A stretch of DNA of 27,017 bases from a virus, in the UHGV virus genome UHGV-0430895, one strand, 5' to 3'. A model generated the notes under the pieces. The model worked only from the letters and a program-made list of their open reading frames with translations. It was not told where the DNA came from and ran no database searches. Positions 741 to 13,624 of the stretch are shown here, one piece after another. The translations under genes were made by a program, and so were the position numbers. The stretch's first letter is position 1. Each line of letters starts with the position of its first letter.

Positions 741-1067
741 TCAGGGCGCAGAAGGACTAAAGATAAATGTTTTATTCACGCCTTTACGCGGCTTGCCCTC
801 CTCAAATCGCCATTTTGCCATCGCCTTTACAACCTGGTCATCAAACAGATGGTGCGGTTCTGAACGGATAAACTCAATTCGGGTGACAGTACCATCAGCA
901 CCAATATCAAACTTCACATCAACCCGTCCCTTTATATAATTTGCCGCTGCATAGGCCGGATATTGTGGTAATGCCTTAACCAACTGTCGGGGCATATCTG
1001 TTTTATGTTGCGTACAGCCCATAACCAGAGAAGACAACAAAATAATTAACGGAAGATTTCTTTTCAT
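741..1067 (-). CDS. Lipoprotein with TonB C-terminal-like domain (prophage moron)
   Basis: Signal peptide with lipobox LVMGC. The mature part (LPQYPAYAAANYIKGRVDVKFDIGADGTVTRIEF...AMAKWRFEEGKP) aligns with the TonB C-terminal domain motif (PxYPxxAxxxxIEGxVxVxFDVxxDGRV...AxxxWRYEPG). ATG at 1067 chosen; the ORF-track start at 1076 is a GTG. Confidence 0.65.
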   Translation of the reverse strand: MKRNLPLIILLSSLVMGCTQHKTDMPRQLVKALPQYPAYAAANYIKGRVDVKFDIGADGTVTRIEFIRSEPHHLFDDQVVKAMAKWRFEEGKPRKGVNKTFIFSPSAP

Positions 1068-1081
1068 TCCCGGCACAGATA

Positions 1082-1098: not shown

Positions 1099-1405
1099 AA
1101 CAATGCCACCCTGTCGGTCATCAATCCTCTGCTTAATGGCAACGACAATTGTCCGACTTAAATCACAAATCAGACACATGACATAACAGGGCTTGCGAGG
1201 TAACACATCGTCCGGCTTCTTCCACCATCGCACCGGACCAGCGACCATGAGGGGACAACGCCGCGCTCCGTTAACGCGGTAAACCCCGGTGTGTATCGTT
1301 TTTGATTACCCCCGCACACTCGCGCAGAGGAGTCTCCCTGTCGGGCTGCGGTCTCTGTTAATGCAGGAATACGGCGACAATACCGCGCATGGATAATAAG
1401 GTCAC

Positions 1406-1630
1406 TCAACACACTGGCTGTAATGCAGCGGATACCATGCGGCATTTAGCGGCATTCATCGTACACTCAACGGTTAGCGCTTCATTCGTGGCATTCACCT
1501 GAAAGGTCCGGGTGTGTAATTGCGTACATTTACCACTGAACGAACCTTCAACAAGAACACGACCACGCTGCAAAATACGGAACGGAATTGTTCCCTGAAA
1601 AGGCTTTACGGTTACCAGTAATTTCTTCAT
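1406..1630 (-). CDS. 74-aa hypothetical protein (paralog A), translationally coupled to Rz
   Basis: ATG overlaps the Rz stop (ATGA overlap) and a GGAGG SD precedes it. N-terminal 45 aa resemble the ORF at 8150..8374 (MKKLxVTxxPF...FRxxQ...VLVE..F.GK.T...AT.E...V). Confidence 0.6.
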
Positions 1631-2121
1631 GTATCCTCCGGATAATAAAAAGCCAGCTTAGTGCACTGAGTGCGGATATATTCCTGCGCCCCTTCCAGCT
1701 GCTTCTGCATTGTCATCAACCGTTCTCTGAGGATGAAATAATCCCGTTCAGCGGTGTCTGCCAGTCGGGGGCCGGTTGCATTATCCACGCCGGAGGTGCC
1801 GGTGGCTTCACGCACGGTACCGGGGCAGGTGGCGTTGATCCGCAGGCGCTTACGACCAGCGGCAACATCAGCACGCAGAGTTTCATTTTCAGCTCTCGCA
1901 TCGGCTAATTCCCTCGAGTATTTTGCATCGAGCGCAGCAACATCGCGCTGGCGCTGCTGCATATCAGTAATGGTTGCGTTTGCCAGTTTCAGCTCACTGA
2001 CTTTTTTATCGCGCTGCGCTTTGTAGGTAATGGCGTTATCGCGGTAATGATTCAGCCCCAGACTAAGCGCACCACAGGCCACCAGCAGGGCAATGATGAC
2101 CACACACAGAACGCGGTTCAT
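1627..2121 (-). CDS. Rz: Rz i-spanin (inner-membrane spanin subunit)
   Basis: 164 aa with N-terminal TM segment and coiled-coil periplasmic domain. Contains an embedded +1-frame proline-rich lipoprotein ORF (Rz1), the classic Rz/Rz1 architecture. Sits downstream of endolysin. Confidence 0.85.
1716..1886 (-). CDS. Rz1: Rz1 o-spanin (outer-membrane lipoprotein, embedded in Rz)
   Basis: [17 protein letters not shown] lipobox followed by a proline-rich sequence ([16 protein letters not shown]), entirely inside Rz in another frame. Confidence 0.8.
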
Positions 2122-2354: not shown

Positions 2355-3050
2355 TCATGCTGCGGTAGCTCTCCATGCAGCAAGCAGACCAGCAATCCAC
2401 TGAACACCTTTTGGGGTGAATTTAACCTGCGTAAAAGCATGACCATTGCCCGCCTCGCCCGTTTTCACGCTAAACCGCCCCGCATCCAGGTGATGCGAGT
2501 AAGGCGTCATTTTTCCAGCGAGGCGATACATTATTCCGTTCTCCAACAAAAACAGCCGGAAATCGGTTTCTTTGATACCGAATAACTTAGCAACTTCCCG
2601 GAATCCCATCAGACCAGATGCTTCAACATAGTTATCAACAAATTCAGCCTTCGGCGCTGCTATTGCCAGTTGATTTTCCAGCTCTGCTTTCTGTTCTGCC
2701 AGTTTTGCCGCAAATCGCAACGCCTCAGGTAAAGTCCGGGGGATCTGAATACCATGCATCGCTTTGAGTCTTGCCAGCACAGAACGACGAACGGCCTTTG
2801 ACTCCCTCATGCCAACGAGCATCATCTGGTCAAAATCCAGATCATAGTATGCCGTTCTTGTCTGGTTATTGTTTAACCGGAATTTTTTCCAGGTTACCTC
2901 AAGCTCAAGTTCGTCCTCAATTTTTGCAAGGAACTTACGCGGTTCATGAGGTGGTTTCCCTGCCTCAACCCGGATGGGGTTAATAATGTTATTCAGAAAA
3001 TCCAGACTACTCATGGATATTTCATGATCGACAGAAATCATCTCTTTCAT
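2355..3050 (-). CDS. Phage antirepressor-like protein with KilA-C (ANT) domain
   Basis: The central/C-terminal region (LPEALRFAAKLAEQKAELENQLAIAAPKAEFVDNYVEASGLMGFREVAKLFGI) matches the KilA-C antirepressor domain pattern. A gene at this position between R and Rz is known in Stx-type phages. Confidence 0.6.
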   Translation of the reverse strand: MKEMISVDHEISMSSLDFLNNIINPIRVEAGKPPHEPRKFLAKIEDELELEVTWKKFRLNNNQTRTAYYDLDFDQMMLVGMRESKAVRRSVLARLKAMHGIQIPRTLPEALRFAAKLAEQKAELENQLAIAAPKAEFVDNYVEASGLMGFREVAKLFGIKETDFRLFLLENGIMYRLAGKMTPYSHHLDAGRFSVKTGEAGNGHAFTQVKFTPKGVQWIAGLLAAWRATAA

Positions 3051-3322: not shown

Positions 3323-3856
3323 CTATCTGTCGATGTCCCAGCACGCCAGCGCACTTTCCTGGTCACGACGGGATACCTGACCGTAGCAGTTATTTGAGCG
3401 GATACGGCAGTCTCTGCCACCGTCCTTAATCCACCAGCGAATCGCTTCGCAGGCACCTTTTCGATCACCTGCATTAATTCGTTTATAAAACGTCGACGGA
3501 AAACACTTACCGGGGCCAATGTTGTACGGACAGAATGACGCGATCCCCGCTTTCTGGGGTTCGGTCAGTGGCACTTTGATGTTTTTCTCCACCCATGCCA
3601 GCGCCTTATCACGTTCAATGCCATTAACCTGGTCGCATTTTTCCTCCGACAACTTCATGCCCGGAACGACAGGTTTACCATCCACCAGGATGGCACCGCG
3701 GCAGATAGTCCAGATACCCGCACCATCACGGTATGCCGTGGTGTGGTTACCTTCCTTTTCATCCAGAAACTGGTCAAGAATGTCAGGCGCAGAAGCACCT
3801 GCGGCAATCAGCGCCAGAACCGCAGCCGATAAACCATAACGGACTTTCTGACTCAC
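3323..3856 (-). CDS. R: SAR endolysin (T4-lysozyme-like muramidase, phage 21 R-type)
   Basis: N-terminal G/A/S-rich signal-anchor-release segment (GLSAAVLALIAAGASA), then an E...D...T catalytic motif (EKEGNHTTAYRDGAGIWT) as in P21 lysozyme. Immediately downstream of the pinholin. Confidence 0.85.
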   Translation of the reverse strand: MSQKVRYGLSAAVLALIAAGASAPDILDQFLDEKEGNHTTAYRDGAGIWTICRGAILVDGKPVVPGMKLSEEKCDQVNGIERDKALAWVEKNIKVPLTEPQKAGIASFCPYNIGPGKCFPSTFYKRINAGDRKGACEAIRWWIKDGGRDCRIRSNNCYGQVSRRDQESALACWDIDR

Positions 3857-4695: not shown

Positions 4696-6609
4696 TCAGG
4701 CTGCCGGGCTGTTCACTTCCACTGTCAGCGTGTCAATCCACGTTTCATACGTGGCTGTATTCGACGCATCCGTCAGAATAAGCGTGTTTTCCTGTCCTTC
4801 ATATTTAAAACAGGACAGCTGTGTGGTCGGGGCTTTTACCGTATCCACGTATGGCGTCACCGTGTTCTGGCCTCCTCCCGGATATACCAGCTCCAGTGTG
4901 TGCCATTCACTGTTCAGCGTACCGTATCCCGCAACACGCGTCTGCGCTGCACCATTGTGCATCAGACTGAGTTTGCCATCCGTTTCTGTCTGCAGATAGA
5001 ACGCCACCAGGAACGGATGGGTACCGTCCGCCTTATTGGCAAATTCCACACCTTCCGGGATATCGTTTTCCTTCAGCTGCAGATACATCGCCAGGGCTAT
5101 CTGTTTTCCGTTCGCACTCCCTGGTATTTTAAAGCGACAGGTGATTTTGCCGCCGTTTTTCAGCAGTTCCGCCGCATTTGCCACTTCACGGGTCAGCTTC
5201 AGGTTCATTGCTTCATCCTGGCTCAGTTTCAGCGCCCGCCCGGAAGTACTGCTTTCATCCTGTACCACTTCCGCCTTACCTTCGCTCAGCGTCCAGCCCT
5301 GTTCGGCATAAGCACCTTCACTTTCTGCACCGCTGTACAGGGTGGTAACGTTACTCTTCGGTTTTGCCGGTTCCGGATAGTTTTCCGTTATATCTCCACC
5401 GGCAAGGAACGGTCCGTTACGCCCTGCATGGGTCAGGATTGCGGTGGCTATACGGTCCGGCAGGATGCCGCGACGGGCCCAGGAACTGAAATGCATGGCG
5501 CGTGTCGGGTTCGTCCAGTTACCCGCCGTGCGTGATGCTGCACCGTAATAATTTGCTTCGGGCACATCCGGATCTTCTGCCGGGTTATTGGTCGGAACAT
5601 TCGCACCGGTCTCATCCTTCATGAGTTCGACAAAATGCACATTCGGCTCACTGTTTTTACGGTACGCGCCATAAACCAGGCTGTATTGTGTCGGGTACTG
5701 CTGCTTCCACCAGAAGGTGGTATCACCACATACCCACGGTACGCGGGCCGCATCACCACCCAGACACTGACCGGCATATGCCGCCAGATCGGTACGGAAC
5801 TGCTTCACCATGGCCGTAAACAACGCCGGATGCCCCGTGTAACCTGAAGACATACAGTCACCCTCGCCCTGCATCCAGTACACGGCCAGCAGGACGTTTT
5901 TCGCGTTCTTTTCAAGGGCGGCCTTCGTGCGGGCAATTAAATCCATGTACAACGGTTTACCCACACCCCAGCGGGAGGAATCCGCTGTTGCCCCCGTCTC
6001 CGGGTTATAGGTACCCTCATCACGATCGGTAAACGCAGAGCCGCCACGACTGCACGGCACAATCAGGATCCCCGCATTAACCGGAATATAGGGCAGAAGA
6101 CGTTTGGCAATATGCAGGCCGTGCCCGACACAACCATACTGACCACGGGAAAGGTCCGCGTTGGGGTGATTTTTGGCACTCATGTCTTCAACGTCATGGA
6201 GACAGTGATCGGCCTCAATCACATCGTTGTATTTACAGGCAGCACCACCCGGTCGGACCACACTGCGGCGGGCCAGCTGCTTAATGCGTGGATCGGGACG
6301 GTCGTAGCTGTCAGGCAGGGGCATACCTTCGCCGGTTGCCATATTGTTGGACTGACCTGCGGTGACCAGCACATAGTAATATTCAGGCTCACGGGTCGGC
6401 TCGCTCACCACCGCACCGCCTTCCTCCGGTGTCACCACGACAGGCGTGGTGACATCCCCTTCTGCGGCAATCGCCTGCATCAGGGTATAAGGGGTAATGG
6501 CGACCGGGCTGCCAAACGGCTGCCAGCCTTCCTTCAGTTTTTGAGTCAGTCGCTCCGCAAGGTCTGACGGCGACGCCGCCCTGACCACGTCATAGTGTTT
6601 AAATGCCAT
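4696..6609 (-). CDS. nanS-p: NanS-p type 9-O-acetyl-sialic acid esterase (DUF1737 N-terminal domain + SASA/SGNH esterase)
   Basis: 637 aa; N-terminus MAFKHYDVV...LKEGWQPFGSPV (DUF1737) and central GQSNNMATG esterase motif. This is the gene normally found between stxB and S in Stx phages. Confidence 0.8.
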   Translation of the reverse strand: MAFKHYDVVRAASPSDLAERLTQKLKEGWQPFGSPVAITPYTLMQAIAAEGDVTTPVVVTPEEGGAVVSEPTREPEYYYVLVTAGQSNNMATGEGMPLPDSYDRPDPRIKQLARRSVVRPGGAACKYNDVIEADHCLHDVEDMSAKNHPNADLSRGQYGCVGHGLHIAKRLLPYIPVNAGILIVPCSRGGSAFTDRDEGTYNPETGATADSSRWGVGKPLYMDLIARTKAALEKNAKNVLLAVYWMQGEGDCMSSGYTGHPALFTAMVKQFRTDLAAYAGQCLGGDAARVPWVCGDTTFWWKQQYPTQYSLVYGAYRKNSEPNVHFVELMKDETGANVPTNNPAEDPDVPEANYYGAASRTAGNWTNPTRAMHFSSWARRGILPDRIATAILTHAGRNGPFLAGGDITENYPEPAKPKSNVTTLYSGAESEGAYAEQGWTLSEGKAEVVQDESSTSGRALKLSQDEAMNLKLTREVANAAELLKNGGKITCRFKIPGSANGKQIALAMYLQLKENDIPEGVEFANKADGTHPFLVAFYLQTETDGKLSLMHNGAAQTRVAGYGTLNSEWHTLELVYPGGGQNTVTPYVDTVKAPTTQLSCFKYEGQENTLILTDASNTATYETWIDTLTVEVNSPAA

Positions 6610-6834: not shown

Positions 6835-7108
6835 TATCCATAAGAAAGCCCCTCCGGAGAGGGGCTGACGCTGCGTATCTGTATCATCATGCGCATGGTG
6901 CCGGGTGCCTCCCGGTGAGTTCAGTATCAGCACCTGAACCCGCACAGAAAGGATAAGGCTAAACGAAAACACCTGTACTGATATGCCCCGCCGCTGAGGG
7001 GGATTCACCATGCGACGCGATTTTTAACAAATTCGCAGTCAGTCAGACAATAATCAACTTGCTGAATTGTGAGGTATTTAAAAATTTCACCAGCTAACTG
7101 ATACCAGG

Positions 7109-7273
7109 CTAACCGTCTGGTGTTTTCTTTTTCAGCAACGGGAAAACAACAACCACAACACCAGCCACCAGCATCCCATCTGCCAGCACTGACATTATCC
7201 GGCTGCTGAAGTCCACCATCACGACAAGAAACAGCAGAACTACCACAATGGCCAGGCGCAGTTTTACCGTCAC
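7109..7273 (-). CDS. Candidate 54-aa two-TM membrane protein, translationally coupled to the TerB-like gene (below ORF-track cutoff)
   Basis: GTG start overlaps the TerB-like stop (GTGA overlap), with GGAG 8 nt upstream. Translation (M)TVKLRLAIVVVLLFLVVMVDFSSRIMSVLADGMLVAGVVVVVFPLLKKKTPDG, verified codon by codon. Confidence 0.45.
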   Translation of the reverse strand: MTVKLRLAIVVVLLFLVVMVDFSSRIMSVLADGMLVAGVVVVVFPLLKKKTPDG

Positions 7274-7701
7274 AGGTGATTCTCCAGACGAAGGCCCAGA
7301 ACACCGGCTATCTCTTCCAGCACCTTGCGCTCTTCCGGCTCAATTTCGCCATCTGATTCCGCAATGGCCACCGCCACATCCAGTACATCTTCCGCTTCTC
7401 GCATATCGTGTTTCACGTCCTCGATCTCACGTAACGCTGCACGACGACCTATTTTGAAGTTGGTGTCCAGCTGACCAGTGATGGTTGCGCTAATCGCATT
7501 AATTTCTGACGTAAACGCTGACAATGCAGGTTGGTTACGCAGTACCTGTTCGATCTTCGCTTTCTCGGAAGCCTCACACTCACCATCTGCATAAGCCACC
7601 AGGTATGCAGCGTTAATCACCGCCTGGGCCAGATCGCGTTTTTCAAACTTTTTAATTTCCGCTGCCGCTCTGCGGGTTTTCTTTTTGAAGATTCCAAACA
7701 T
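7270..7701 (-). CDS. TerB-like (tellurite-resistance TerB domain) protein, prophage moron
   Basis: 144 aa from MFGIFKKK. Helical, acidic, with AAYLVAYADGECEASEKAKIEQVL and IAESDGEIEPEERKVLEEIAGVLGL repeats typical of the TerB fold. Confidence 0.6.
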   Translation of the reverse strand: MFGIFKKKTRRAAAEIKKFEKRDLAQAVINAAYLVAYADGECEASEKAKIEQVLRNQPALSAFTSEINAISATITGQLDTNFKIGRRAALREIEDVKHDMREAEDVLDVAVAIAESDGEIEPEERKVLEEIAGVLGLRLENHL

Positions 7702-7833
7702 CGTGACGTTCCTTTGGGTGGGTGAGCCAACGCCCGGGAGCGATCTGCCCACAGAGAAAGTCACACTGACCACTCCGTAAGCTCACCCCCGAAAGGCTCT
7801 GTGGTTGATATGCGCCGGGCGTGGCGCGGATAC

Positions 7834-7856
7834 AAAAAAGGCCGCCAATAGCGACC
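7834..7856 (-). terminator. Intrinsic terminator (minus strand) downstream of the 68-aa ORF
   Basis: Minus-strand GGTCGC-TATTG-GCGGCC followed by TTTTTT. A near-identical copy lies at 8427..8450. Confidence 0.55.
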
Positions 7857-7890
7857 TCAGTTACGGGATTATTCTGGGGTTAAACGACTG

Positions 7891-8097
7891 TTACTCCCAG
7901 ACAAAATCATCACTTCCTGTTCGATGCGAGCCATAGTGAACCTCGTACTTATCTCCCATCTTTCTTGCTTCCGTTTCTGCGTCTTCCTCTGTCGCAAAAA
8001 CCCCAACAAGATGCCAGGGCGAGCTTCTTACCACAGCCCAACCTTTAACCCATCCTTTGTTGTCCTTATCTTCCATTAACACTTCAGAAACAAACAT
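7891..8097 (-). CDS. 68-aa hypothetical protein
   Basis: ORF MFVSEVLMEDKDNKGWVKGWAVV...; no family recognised. Bracketed by the two terminator copies together with the 8150..8374 ORF. Confidence 0.45.
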   Translation of the reverse strand: MFVSEVLMEDKDNKGWVKGWAVVRSSPWHLVGVFATEEDAETEARKMGDKYEVHYGSHRTGSDDFVWE

Positions 8098-8149: not shown

Positions 8150-8374
8150 TCAATAAAGTGGCTTCAATTTTGCCTTAATGATCAAATCAGGGTGATTGAC
8201 GGAATCGTACACCACCTCAATATTTTCATCCGTGGCGTCGATAAGATATTCTTTTACATAAGGACCTGTTGATTTTCCATGAAATACATCTTCAACAAGT
8301 ACACTCTCCCCCTGAACAACACGAAAACTAACTTCTGTTTCGAACGGACCAATCGTCACCATCAGTTTTTTCAC
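8150..8374 (-). CDS. 74-aa hypothetical protein (paralog B of 1406..1630)
   Basis: GTG start with strong AGGAGG SD. Shares the N-terminal motif set with paralog A. Located right after the tRNA cluster, in the slot where stx sits in Stx phages. Confidence 0.55.
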   Translation of the reverse strand: MKKLMVTIGPFETEVSFRVVQGESVLVEDVFHGKSTGPYVKEYLIDATDENIEVVYDSVNHPDLIIKAKLKPLY

Positions 8375-8426
8375 ATAGCCTCCTGATAAGCACTCGATTT
8401 ATTAGTTAATGGTGTAACGCAGATAC

Positions 8427-8450
8427 AAAAAAGGCCCGCAAAAGCGAGCC
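8427..8450 (-). terminator. Intrinsic terminator (minus strand) downstream of the tRNA cluster
   Basis: Minus-strand GGCTCGC-TTTT-GCGGGCC followed by TTTTTT; homologous to the terminator at 7834..7856. Confidence 0.55.
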
Positions 8451-8463
8451 AGGTAAATAAATA

Positions 8464-8540
8464 TGGCGCGTTGTACTGGATTCGAACCAGTGACCGATTG
8501 CTTAGAAGGCAATTGCTCTGTCCGGCTGAGCTAACAACGC
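8464..8540 (-). tRNA. tRNA-Arg (anticodon TCT)
   Basis: Manual cloverleaf: acceptor GCGTTGT/ACAACGC, D-arm GCTC...GAGC, anticodon stem ATTGC/GCAAT with loop CTTCTAA, T-loop TTCGAAT, 3' CCA encoded. Confidence 0.8.
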
Positions 8541-8553
8541 AGGGTACGGATAA

Positions 8554-8630
8554 TGGACCGCCATCGAGGACTCGAACCCCGCGCAACCAGCTTCGAAGGC
8601 TGGCGCTCTATCCCGATGAGCTAATGGCGG
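8554..8630 (-). tRNA. tRNA-Arg (anticodon TCG)
   Basis: Manual cloverleaf: anticodon stem CCAGC/GCTGG with loop CTTCGAA, T-arm CGGGG-TTCGAGT-CCTCG, 3' CCA encoded. Exact ends are uncertain by a few nt. Confidence 0.7.
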
Positions 8631-8637
8631 TATGTGA

Positions 8638-8713
8638 TGGTGGCCCTTGCTGGATTTGAACCAGCGACCTGGCGATTATGAGTCGCTCGCTCTCACCACT
8701 GAGCTAAAGGGCC
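8638..8713 (-). tRNA. tRNA with CAT anticodon (Ile2/Met type, ileZ-like of Stx phages)
   Basis: Manual cloverleaf: acceptor GGCCCTT, D-arm GCTCAGTGGTGAGAGC, anticodon loop CTCATAA, T-loop TTCAAAT, 3' CCA encoded. Same position as ileZ-argN-argO in Stx phages. Confidence 0.75.
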
Positions 8714-8753: not shown

Positions 8754-9812
8754 TCATCCGTTCTGACTGATAAAATCCTGAACTTCCCTGACTGTCTGCT
8801 CAAAACGTCCGGTCTCCAGCTCAACACCAATCGCCCGACGTCCCAGTGACAGCGCCGCTTTTACCGTTGAACCTGACCCCATGAAAAAATCTGCAATCAG
8901 GTCACCCGGACGACTGCTCGCACTGATTATCTGCCGCAGCATTTCTGCCGGTTTTTCGCACGGATGTTTCCCGGGATAGTACTGCACCGGTTTATGCGTC
9001 CACACATCCGTGTACGGCACCTGCGCCGTCACGCCAAAATACCGCCGCAGATGCTTATATTCACTCTGCAGTTCCGCATACTGCCGGTTCAGTGAAGTAT
9101 ACGTCTCCAGCAGCTGGTGGTGGGGCTTTTCCAGTTCACCCCGCTGATGCTTCTCTTCTGCCACCCGGGCAAACAGCGCCTGTAATTTCAGATAATCACT
9201 TTCGTCCGGTAGCTGCCACTGACTGGCACTGAACCAGTGCGACACCATGTTTTTCTTTCCTGTGGCATCCACTATCTGTTTTGCCGTTATCCCCAGGGCA
9301 GCGCGCGCATCACGAAAGTAAGCAATCAGCGGGGCCATCACATGCTGTTTCAGTGCCCTGCCCTTCGCCTCATACCCGGCATCTTTCGGACGATACGGCC
9401 CCTGATAATGTTCCGCGAACAGAATGCGCTCTGTGGCGGGGAAATACGCCCTCAGGCTTTCCTTGTTGCACCCGTTCCAGCGTCCGGACGGCTTCGCCCA
9501 GATGATATGGTTCAGTACGTTAAACCGCTCACGCATCATGATTTCGGTGTCAGATGCCAGGCGATGCCCACAGAACAGGTAAAGGCTTCCGGCAGGTTTT
9601 AACACCCGCCAGAACTGCGCCAGACACTGGTCCAGCCACTTCAGGTAATCATCGTCGCCCTTCCACTGGTTATCCCAGCCCTCAGGCTTCACTTTAAAGT
9701 ACGGCGGGTCCGTGACTATCAGGTCAACAGAATTTTCGGGTAACGACCGGATAAATTCCAGGCAGTCGGCGTTGATTAACTCACAACTGGATATTTTTAC
9801 AGTATTAAGCAT
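8754..9812 (-). CDS. Orphan DNA N6-adenine/N4-cytosine methyltransferase (beta-class, DPPY)
   Basis: 352 aa; N-terminal catalytic motif IV (LIVTDPPYF) and C-terminal SAM-binding motif I (DFFMGSGST). No adjacent restriction endonuclease. Confidence 0.8.
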   Translation of the reverse strand: MLNTVKISSCELINADCLEFIRSLPENSVDLIVTDPPYFKVKPEGWDNQWKGDDDYLKWLDQCLAQFWRVLKPAGSLYLFCGHRLASDTEIMMRERFNVLNHIIWAKPSGRWNGCNKESLRAYFPATERILFAEHYQGPYRPKDAGYEAKGRALKQHVMAPLIAYFRDARAALGITAKQIVDATGKKNMVSHWFSASQWQLPDESDYLKLQALFARVAEEKHQRGELEKPHHQLLETYTSLNRQYAELQSEYKHLRRYFGVTAQVPYTDVWTHKPVQYYPGKHPCEKPAEMLRQIISASSRPGDLIADFFMGSGSTVKAALSLGRRAIGVELETGRFEQTVREVQDFISQNG

Positions 9813-10403: not shown

Positions 10404-10946
10404 TTATCGAAATGAATCATGCATAGGTACATAAAGCATGTGTTCAGCCACGGCTAACCAACCTGCAATACGTTTCTCACATGTGCTGAAGCACCATTCC
10501 GGGTGAGTACGATTTAAACATTCTGCCATTTTTCTCTTACTCATTCCCCGTCCTTCGTACCTTTGCCGGAGAATATTGATTAGCCCGGGATATTCCCCAA
10601 GCACCTCACTGATGACGCGATCAATAATCAACGCCTCTGTGTCTGTACAATGTGACAACCAGCTCTTCTGCTTCCCTCTGGTCATATCCCGAAAAAATGC
10701 CTCAAGTTCCGGTTTATCCAGCCCGGATTTCTTCATTCTGCGTAAAACCTCATTAACTGCTGTTTTTGTCAGCTTCTTCGAAACCAGTAACCGGTTAAAC
10801 ATATTTCCGGATTTACCCCCACCTATATACGACCACCGCCCCCACATCCGTAATTTCCCCTGGATCCAGACTGCTTCCAGCGTGTTCAGGCGTAAATGTT
10901 CGCCGCTTTTGCCTGTAATTTCCGGATATATCATATTTACGCTCAC
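10404..10946 (-). CDS. Putative late-gene antiterminator (Q-like)
   Basis: 180-aa ORF immediately upstream of the terminator/late region and downstream of rusA, the canonical Q position. The family assignment is by position and recollection of prophage antitermination proteins, not by a recognised motif. Confidence 0.5.
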   Translation of the reverse strand: MSVNMIYPEITGKSGEHLRLNTLEAVWIQGKLRMWGRWSYIGGGKSGNMFNRLLVSKKLTKTAVNEVLRRMKKSGLDKPELEAFFRDMTRGKQKSWLSHCTDTEALIIDRVISEVLGEYPGLINILRQRYEGRGMSKRKMAECLNRTHPEWCFSTCEKRIAGWLAVAEHMLYVPMHDSFR

Positions 10947-13223: not shown

Positions 13224-13379
13224 TTACTTCTCAGATTCGTAGTCTACGAAGACAGCGACCTCCGTCTGGCCGGTTCGGATTCGTACCTCGCAGAGGTCTT
13301 TCCTCGTTACCAGTGCCGTCACTATGACGGTTAAACAGATGACAATCAGGGCGATTAACATCGCCTTTTGCTGCTTCAT
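13224..13379 (-). CDS. hokD: Hok/Gef-family type I toxin (HokD/RelF-like)
   Basis: MKQQKAMLIALIVICLTVIVTALVTRKDLCEVRIRTGQTEVAVF... is essentially the HokD sequence as I recall it. The upstream region is strongly structured (9-bp inverted repeat CTGTCTGCC/GGCAGACAG). Confidence 0.8.
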   Translation of the reverse strand: MKQQKAMLIALIVICLTVIVTALVTRKDLCEVRIRTGQTEVAVFVDYESEK

Positions 13380-13624
13380 AGCCTGCTTCTCCTTGCCTTT
13401 CGGCACGTAAGAGGCTAACCTACATGTGCAAAGCATGAAATTGGCCTCAGATTAATGTTAAGCGTCTTGCCGGACGCGTAATGTTAACTGGGGCTTTTCT
13501 CTGTCTGCCTTACGGTGGCATGCCCGAGGCAGACAGCCTCAAGCACCCGCAGCAATTCTACTTAACTCTCGCTTTACCGCAAACCGTTTTTACCCGATAT
13601 GGGAATCCCCATATCGCAATGAAA

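Follow-up and report, generated by a model that had tools for sequence, protein, structure and literature searches.

The virus genome UHGV-0430895, analysed here as one window of 27,017 nucleotides (nt), is a lambdoid, Stx-phage-like prophage whose late operon lies on the minus strand. It carries two genes of a single, phage-restricted protein family, PHROG 2571, which we call paralogs A and B: A lies directly behind the spanin gene Rz, and B lies at the junction that holds the Shiga toxin genes in a related Stx2a phage. The explanation that we consider the most probable overall, though well short of certain, is that family members are portable, accessory late-operon cargo of lambdoid phages of Enterobacteriaceae. 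The identity of A and B, taken jointly with their modular history, we regard as very probable. Their sequences point to arrival by separate mosaic recombination events rather than by duplication in place, and comparison with other loci suggests that the recurrent unit is a terminator-ended pair, composed of a fast-evolving beta-sandwich protein and a better conserved partner belonging to PHROG 4280. The three genes concerned are listed below, in amino acids (aa) and with the sources of each assignment.

1406..1630, minus strand: paralog A, PHROG 2571, a predicted soluble beta-sandwich of 74 aa (list of open reading frames, phrog_2571 match, AlphaFold model)
8150..8374, minus strand: paralog B, PHROG 2571, a predicted 74-aa beta-sandwich and the first gene of a two-gene cassette
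7891..8097, minus strand: partner gene, PHROG 4280, encoding a predicted 68-aa acidic alpha/beta protein (phrog_4280, E=2e-40)

A preliminary description, made from the letters of the sequence, had reported two open reading frames (ORFs) of equal length that share their N-terminal motifs and diverge at the C-terminus, and this is confirmed in every part. Both proteins are 74 aa long, and BLASTP aligns them without gaps at 26 of 74 identical positions (35%, E=2e-17), which is significant. Counted from this alignment, the identities occupy 23 of the 54 positions in the N-terminal part and 3 of the 20 in the C-terminal part. Both proteins also match the phrog_2571 profile from end to end of their sequences (E=9.9e-28 for A, E=1.9e-26 for B), and a scan of the window with a family hidden Markov model (HMM) returns exactly two copies. 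A is basic, with a pI of 10.0, a net charge of +6.6 and four cysteines, and B is acidic, with a pI of 5.0, a net charge of -4.3 and no cysteine; across the family the charge runs from about -5 to +7 and shows no correlation with the presence of a partner gene. One linked element was missing from that description and has to be added: B is followed by the conserved 68-aa partner gene.

The alignment-based AlphaFold model of the family protein is a compact all-beta sandwich with a pLDDT (predicted local distance difference test) of 90.9, in which the N-terminus forms the first strand. In a hydropathy scan with the spanin proteins Rz and Rz1 as controls, neither A nor B has a membrane, signal-anchor or lipobox segment: with a window of 15 residues, Kyte-Doolittle values peak at 0.80 in A and 0.75 in B, compared with 3.15 in Rz and 2.19 in Rz1. 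Since a hydrophobic segment is absent, unlike in Rz and Rz1, both proteins should be soluble and presumably cytoplasmic, and the model would make the PHROG 2571 members considered here soluble single-domain beta-sandwiches of 74-81 residues. Neither protein belongs to a Pfam, NCBIfam or PADLOC family, with no match to the toxin-antitoxin and defence models in these three collections, and profile searches against PDB sequences gave chance-level hits only. The fold bears a low-Z resemblance to small carbohydrate-binding beta-sandwiches at a sequence identity of 6-16%, and no Foldseek match reached E<=0.001. The likeness of the family fold to carbohydrate-binding modules (CBM6/35/36), to LecB and to the beta-sandwich domain of lambda gpJ is generic for beta-sandwiches.

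A HMMER search of 1.8 billion representative sequences returned 53 relatives, many of them about 80 aa long and with a common motif pattern. Their named sources are Escherichia, Salmonella, Klebsiella, Phytobacter and other Enterobacteriaceae, and all are labelled 'hypothetical'. RefSeq likewise lists family members as hypothetical proteins, for example WP_000736380.1 and, for B itself, WP_000735807.1. The phrog_2571 profile is also matched by HK225 gp20, by PhiR46_1 XSB42772.1 and by Klebsiella and Phytobacter proteins, so that homologues of a real family do occur in other phages and prophages. This profile carries no functional annotation. Its length of 291 positions reflects the longer protein, in three parts, on which it is based, and A and B match only the central 73. 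In PhiR46_1 (locus L007, 3701-4561) the protein that follows Rz has 286 aa, and the beta-sandwich is the middle of its three parts. A weak family hit in locus L002 (E=5e-4) was rejected, since what it matches is the C-terminal extension of a single chimeric member and not the beta-sandwich.

Among 5426 complete E. coli genomes, 1244 (~23%) carry the A type, and intact copies occur in 1189. Carriers include O157:H7, O127:H6 (enteropathogenic E. coli, EPEC) and ST131, with up to six copies per genome. Measured against a Salmonella-type relative with 64% identity, the ratio of nonsynonymous to synonymous polymorphism (pN/pS) of A is ~0.4. The family genes are thus real, constrained and fast-evolving. 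Searching the literature for the protein accessions and the family names, we found no paper on these proteins, and a comparative genomics study of Stx phages (PMC8136144) does not discuss the genes after Rz.

The distribution of the two copies bears directly on their origin. The preliminary description had taken two copies in one prophage to suggest a functional role, perhaps as an effector pair. A duplication in place, followed by divergence into copies that cooperate, would account for their equal length, common fold family and presence in one prophage, and prophage YZ_2_1 carries both as well. However, E110019 carries A only and two other prophages carry B only. Relatives found elsewhere are 64-97% identical to A and 97-100% identical to B, with a protein identical to B in four E. 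coli loci, whereas A and B are only 35% identical to each other; each copy also has its own clean insertion boundaries. Because each is found alone in other prophages, A and B are most readily understood as independent mosaic acquisitions, and we consider an in-place duplication or a cooperating pair highly improbable. Secretion of either protein as a type III effector is also unlikely, given that prophages of Klebsiella and Phytobacter have family members, as do the coliphages mEp237 and HK225. The presence of the family in K-12-type coliphages speaks against an effector pair in the same way, and so does its presence in hosts that are not known to carry a LEE-type (locus of enterocyte effacement) secretion system.

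Paralog A is joined to Rz in a way that initially suggests a link to lysis, and the following features describe this junction.

1627..2121, minus strand: Rz i-spanin, 164 aa (Pfam Phage_lysis, E=7e-50; phrog_13)
1716..1901, minus strand: putative Rz1 o-spanin ORF, 61 aa, embedded in Rz (ORF list; lipobox-like LVVSAC in the translation)
1635..1639, minus strand: Shine-Dalgarno GGAGG of A, within the extended Rz frame (sequence)
1627..1630, minus strand: ATGA overlap between the start of A and the stop of the extended Rz (read from the sequence)
1210..1390, minus strand: conserved non-coding block (alignments with O157 strain 2571, SMN013SH2 and L015)

Pfam Phage_lysis covers residues 29-153 of the 164 in Rz, and we infer Rz1 from the established Rz/Rz1 architecture. 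The plus strand at 1627-1630 reads TCAT, which places the ATG of A at 1630-1628 and the TGA of Rz at 1629-1627. The GGAGG lies 4 nt ahead of this ATG; it is kept in E110019 and is GGAGA in YZ_2_1. A does begin within an ATGA overlap with the Rz stop, as had been described, and the predicted co-transcription of A with Rz is supported too. As a trait of the family, however, coupling to the spanin gene fails. In YZ_2_1 and in L015, Rz stops at a TAG 23 nt upstream of the ATG of the family gene. The window and E110019 have CTG in place of that TAG, so that Rz reads nine extra codons to the TGA within ATGA. When 30 E. coli A-type hits were sampled at even spacing, 15 overlapped the annotated lysis gene and the other 15 had no overlap. 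Judged from these alleles, the overlap of A with Rz is an allele-specific accident of Rz stop loss and not a property of the family. The nine added codons (window 1627-1657) extend the periplasmic C-terminus of the Rz i-spanin, and the extended form is also annotated in a Stx2a phage, as a 495-nt 'endopeptidase'.

In comparison with two prophages that lack A, the gene is a clean insertion of ~260 base pairs (bp) between the end of Rz and the conserved non-coding block. This block directly follows Rz in prophages without A and therefore marks the downstream edge of the insertion. Homology search and alignment detected neither a partner gene nor a degenerate remnant of one downstream of A, which joins the block directly, and a terminator scan of the same region found no T-rich terminator before 1077. 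The block itself (~180 nt) is common to O157:H7, other E. coli and a Salmonella-type prophage, and lies between the lysis and packaging regions. It was tried as a small RNA and rejected, since Rfam gave nothing and the folding z-score (0.58) shows no excess folding energy.

A total of 23 loci were looked at in detail (L numbers here). A search for the family behind Rz in other phages gave a positive answer: in each of the 26 phage records that contain an A-type copy, the gene lies at the 3' end of Rz, and distant members lie just after the spanin as gp60 of mEp237 and in prophages of Klebsiella oxytoca, K. michiganensis, Phytobacter and Salmonella. These post-spanin members adjoin three terminase types and four lysis-cassette types, namely class II holin/lysozyme/Rz, holin_3_1/GH108, holin_8/GH19 and DUF2514 cassettes. 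Two further members, HK225 gp20 and SaltyDalty CDS0065 (family HMM E~1e-12; PHROG 7.5e-20), are located between I-like and J-like tail genes, where they overlap the upstream stop and have a terminator downstream. Given the four cassette types and the I-J and stx positions, the family has no constant linkage to one lysis gene type.

These positions allow a role in lysis to be weighed. As a lysis accessory, the beta-sandwich, with or without its partner, would modulate the final lysis steps, either with the spanin complex or by binding glycan reached via holin lesions. Most contexts are indeed directly post-spanin across four genera, A overlaps Rz translationally here and in about half of the sampled alleles, the fold has low-Z similarity to carbohydrate-binding modules and lectins, and a stretch of the partner resembles SPOR/DamX below the threshold (E=0.2-0.7). 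Yet the absence of any transmembrane, signal or lipobox segment would leave a cytoplasmic protein unable to reach Rz and Rz1 where they lie in the periplasm. The holins, endolysins and spanins beside family members are of unrelated types, other members occupy I-J tail junctions or the stx slot upstream of the holin, and the Rz overlap is the stop-loss accident described above. The CBM similarity is not significant, and neither is that to SPOR (12.4 bits against a Pfam cut-off of 21, E=0.21; PDB DamX, E=0.74). The post-spanin region is, furthermore, the genome end beside the packaging genes, and as a general cargo hotspot it is also where lambda bor lies. With no membrane segment, such varied lysis cassettes, and the I-J and stx positions, the lysis-related role raised in the preliminary description is not indicated. 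We consider it unlikely, and keep it in play because the post-spanin position is so frequent.

Paralog B occurs in a different setting, with clear boundaries on both sides.

8464-8713, minus strand: tRNA cluster upstream of B, with Met/Ile-type CAT, Arg-TCG and Arg-TCT (ARAGORN and Rfam)
8433..8450, minus strand: intrinsic terminator behind the tRNAs, bounding the B cassette on its upstream side (terminator scan)
8411..8447: upstream copy of a 37-nt direct repeat (repeat search)
8379..8384, minus strand: Shine-Dalgarno AGGAGG of B (sequence)
7838..7858, minus strand: intrinsic terminator closing the B cassette (terminator scan)
7818..7854: downstream copy of the 37-nt direct repeat (repeat search)

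The start codon of B is GTG at 8374, not ATG, with the AGGAGG 4 nt upstream, and the partner gene has AAGGAG 6 nt upstream. As previously noted, B follows the tRNA cluster, 90 nt downstream of the last of the three tRNAs called by ARAGORN. The 37-nt repeats are 81% identical and 593 bp apart; they flank the B cassette and duplicate the tRNA terminator. In E110019 there is one repeat copy only, and the B cassette is absent between the tRNA terminator and TerB. Within the cluster, the tRNA at 8638-8713 (minus strand) is called Met (CAT) by ARAGORN, and the equivalent gene of related prophages is tRNA-Ile in RefSeq; this would be consistent with a CAT anticodon that carries lysidine, as in the ileX/ileZ type. 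In YZ_2_1 (L008, 9437-12052) an IS66-family element lies between the tRNA cluster and the B cassette, cutting the cassette off from the late promoter.

The partner of B is 65% identical to mEp237 gp61, which follows the family member gp60, and a partner homologue lies directly downstream of a family gene in eight other loci (L015/L016, L017-L019, L021, E. coli B loci and mEp237 among them). The two-gene cassette recurs in five lineages with a partner of 68-73 residues, and when the same cassette pairs are compared, the partners are 59-82% identical and the beta-sandwich proteins 25-51%. Strong intrinsic terminators follow the B cassette and those in mEp237, L012, L017, HK225 and L015, and no cassette is without one. 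Forms without a partner include A, the Klebsiella forms of 118-126 aa, the Phytobacter form and the I-J forms. A thus stands alone, and B would have retained its partner (7891-8097). Behind the L015 cassette, at 5500-5740, a remnant of the KilAC gene 3' end is followed by one of an Rz 3' end, and these antirepressor and Rz remnants look like recombination scars.

A single-sequence AlphaFold model of the partner (pLDDT 77) has the order strand-strand-helix-strand-strand. With this single helix and no Pfam hit for a helix-turn-helix, the model gives no indication of such a domain, and a search against PADLOC yielded only a chance-level hit (E=0.014). The partner family is also found in Pseudomonas siphophages (L022, 3686-4204, phage YMC11/02/R656), where the ORF is only partly annotated. 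The homologue there belongs to a ~2.7-kb insertion among tail genes and comes after an 83-aa gene that is unrelated to the family. The gene upstream of it, gp054, was considered as a family member and rejected as unrelated.

The position of the B cassette is best seen against the Stx2a phage Stx2_EH1846, which has the order methylase, tRNAs, stx2AB, esterase, holin, endolysin, Rz and A-type gene. The window and this phage have 53 nt in common after the last tRNA, and the B cassette and stx2AB then diverge at the same nucleotide; the same tRNA-terminator junction (8433-8450) precedes stx2A. The flanks of the two insertions are also the same, with the DNA methylase and tRNAs upstream and the nanS-p esterase and holin downstream. 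The B cassette differs from stxAB in that its proteins are unrelated to Shiga toxin in sequence and fold and lack signal peptides; it measures only 593 bp and ends in its own terminator. Its presence at the stxAB junction is a clean natural example of cargo exchange at a toxin locus. In Stx phages the stx slot is strongly transcribed on induction.

That both copies occupy cargo slots of the late operon, as first described, is borne out by these comparisons. In the cargo explanation, family members would have been inserted cleanly at non-essential late-operon junctions, mostly post-spanin, but also at I-J and, for B, at the stx junction. A sigma-70 consensus scan upstream of A, B and four relatives found no promoter, although weak or non-sigma-70 promoters could escape it. 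The cassettes, with no detectable promoter, would lie downstream of terminators and inside the Q-antiterminated late transcript. From the lack of a promoter and the position in this transcript it follows that the proteins are probably made only in lytic growth and remain in the cytoplasm; such late-only expression is, in our estimate, somewhat more likely than not. Family members may further be non-catalytic binding modules acting on a host or otherwise general target. Such a target is likelier than a neighbouring phage protein because the lysis, tail and packaging modules that accompany the family are unrelated from phage to phage; we put forward the binding of a host target tentatively, with somewhat less than even confidence. 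B would probably act in complex with its partner, and the cargo would be expected to be dispensable for plaque formation. Two points weigh against the cargo explanation in this form. Given what a consensus scan would miss, expression in the lysogen, as in a classic moron, remains compatible with the data, and the location of most members immediately after the spanin fits a lysis-linked role as well.

The closest general precedent is the moron of lambdoid phages in the Juhala/Hendrix definition, with lambda bor, lom and HK97 gp15 as examples. Like morons, A and B separate features that lie side by side in related phages, use the same hotspots and are independent of the neighbouring modules, and the B cassette is closed by its own intrinsic terminator (7838-7858). 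Unlike morons, solo A has no terminator and overlaps Rz, and no own promoter is detectable for A or B. The named classic morons also encode envelope proteins, whereas the A and B proteins are predicted to be soluble.

The pairing of a variable with a conserved gene suggests another possible function. In a two-gene counter-defence or defence locus, the variable beta-sandwich would either bind and neutralise or else sense some component of immunity or of a phage that itself varies. The upstream gene is indeed the variable one and the downstream gene the conserved one, the Pseudomonas phage partner homologue follows an unrelated 83-aa protein in an insertion among tail genes, and the proteins are small, fast-evolving, located in accessory hotspots and, for A (+6.6) and B (-4.3), strongly different in net charge. 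In these respects the cassette resembles acr-aca loci, which also combine a variable small upstream gene with a conserved small downstream gene and to which the Pseudomonas partner behind an unrelated small gene can be likened. The resemblance is one of architecture only, as the partner lacks a helix-turn-helix, no promoter was found and the defence library gave no hits. PADLOC returns nothing for A, B or their relatives, the partner model is a single helix between strands, and many family members have no partner. The late-operon position without a detected promoter also argues against this function, as many characterised anti-defence genes are expressed early. We therefore rate a defence or counter-defence locus as improbable. 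The same low probability applies to the more specific proposal that the terminator-closed pair is a previously unrecognised two-component host-interaction module, most plausibly for counter-defence or defence, with the beta-sandwich as a diversifying specificity subunit and solo A as a partner-independent derivative. If that proposal were true, the module would fill, in this prophage, the highly expressed slot occupied by Shiga toxin in Stx phages.

The I-J members raise the question of whether the family could be a virion or tail-assembly accessory, such as a decoration or chaperone protein. Those members end in their own terminator and look like insertions, however, and most others are far from tail genes. 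Capsid, portal and terminase types differ among the phages that carry the family, and its structural similarity to gpJ is no better than that to many unrelated beta-sandwiches. We regard such a role as very unlikely, and retain the portable accessory cargo as our preferred explanation.

The A type, although carried by ~23% of complete E. coli genomes, is without a Pfam family, a name or a literature. The two-gene architecture offers a small experimental target of ~600 bp. A host-interaction or immunity module, if true, would add a widespread family; otherwise these are one more uncharacterised moron-type cargo gene.

The remaining genes around A and B agree in their assignment with the RefSeq annotation of a 94%-identical prophage and are given here in the order of late-operon transcription.

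10404-10946: antiterminator Q, first in the order
8754-9812: DNA methylase, next after Q
7270-7773: TerB, downstream of the 68-aa partner ORF
4696-6609: nanS-p-type esterase, downstream of TerB and followed by the holin region
3323-3856: lysozyme, downstream of the holin region
2355-3050, minus strand: KilAC antirepressor, between lysozyme and Rz
741-1076, minus strand: TonB_C lipoprotein, downstream of paralog A

Beyond the TonB_C lipoprotein are a YlcI/YnfO gene on the opposite strand and then an HNH endonuclease. The lipoprotein gene at 741-1076 (minus strand; Pfam E=5e-15) occupies the lambda bor position; its PHROGs family label is 'Rz-like spanin' (phrog_1267, E=4e-40), which looks questionable. 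The KilAC-type antirepressor gene at 2355-3050 (minus strand) splits the lysis cassette, lying between the endolysin and Rz. A full-length match to the small RNA family STnc100 (133 bits, E=2e-29) occupies 6836-7043 on the minus strand, between TerB/DUF3927 and the nanS-p esterase gene. A hok/sok-type toxin-antitoxin locus is marked by a sok RNA match at 13374-13548 (minus strand, 117 bits), which overlaps an ORF at 13224-13436 (minus strand) with a Hok-like peptide at its end.
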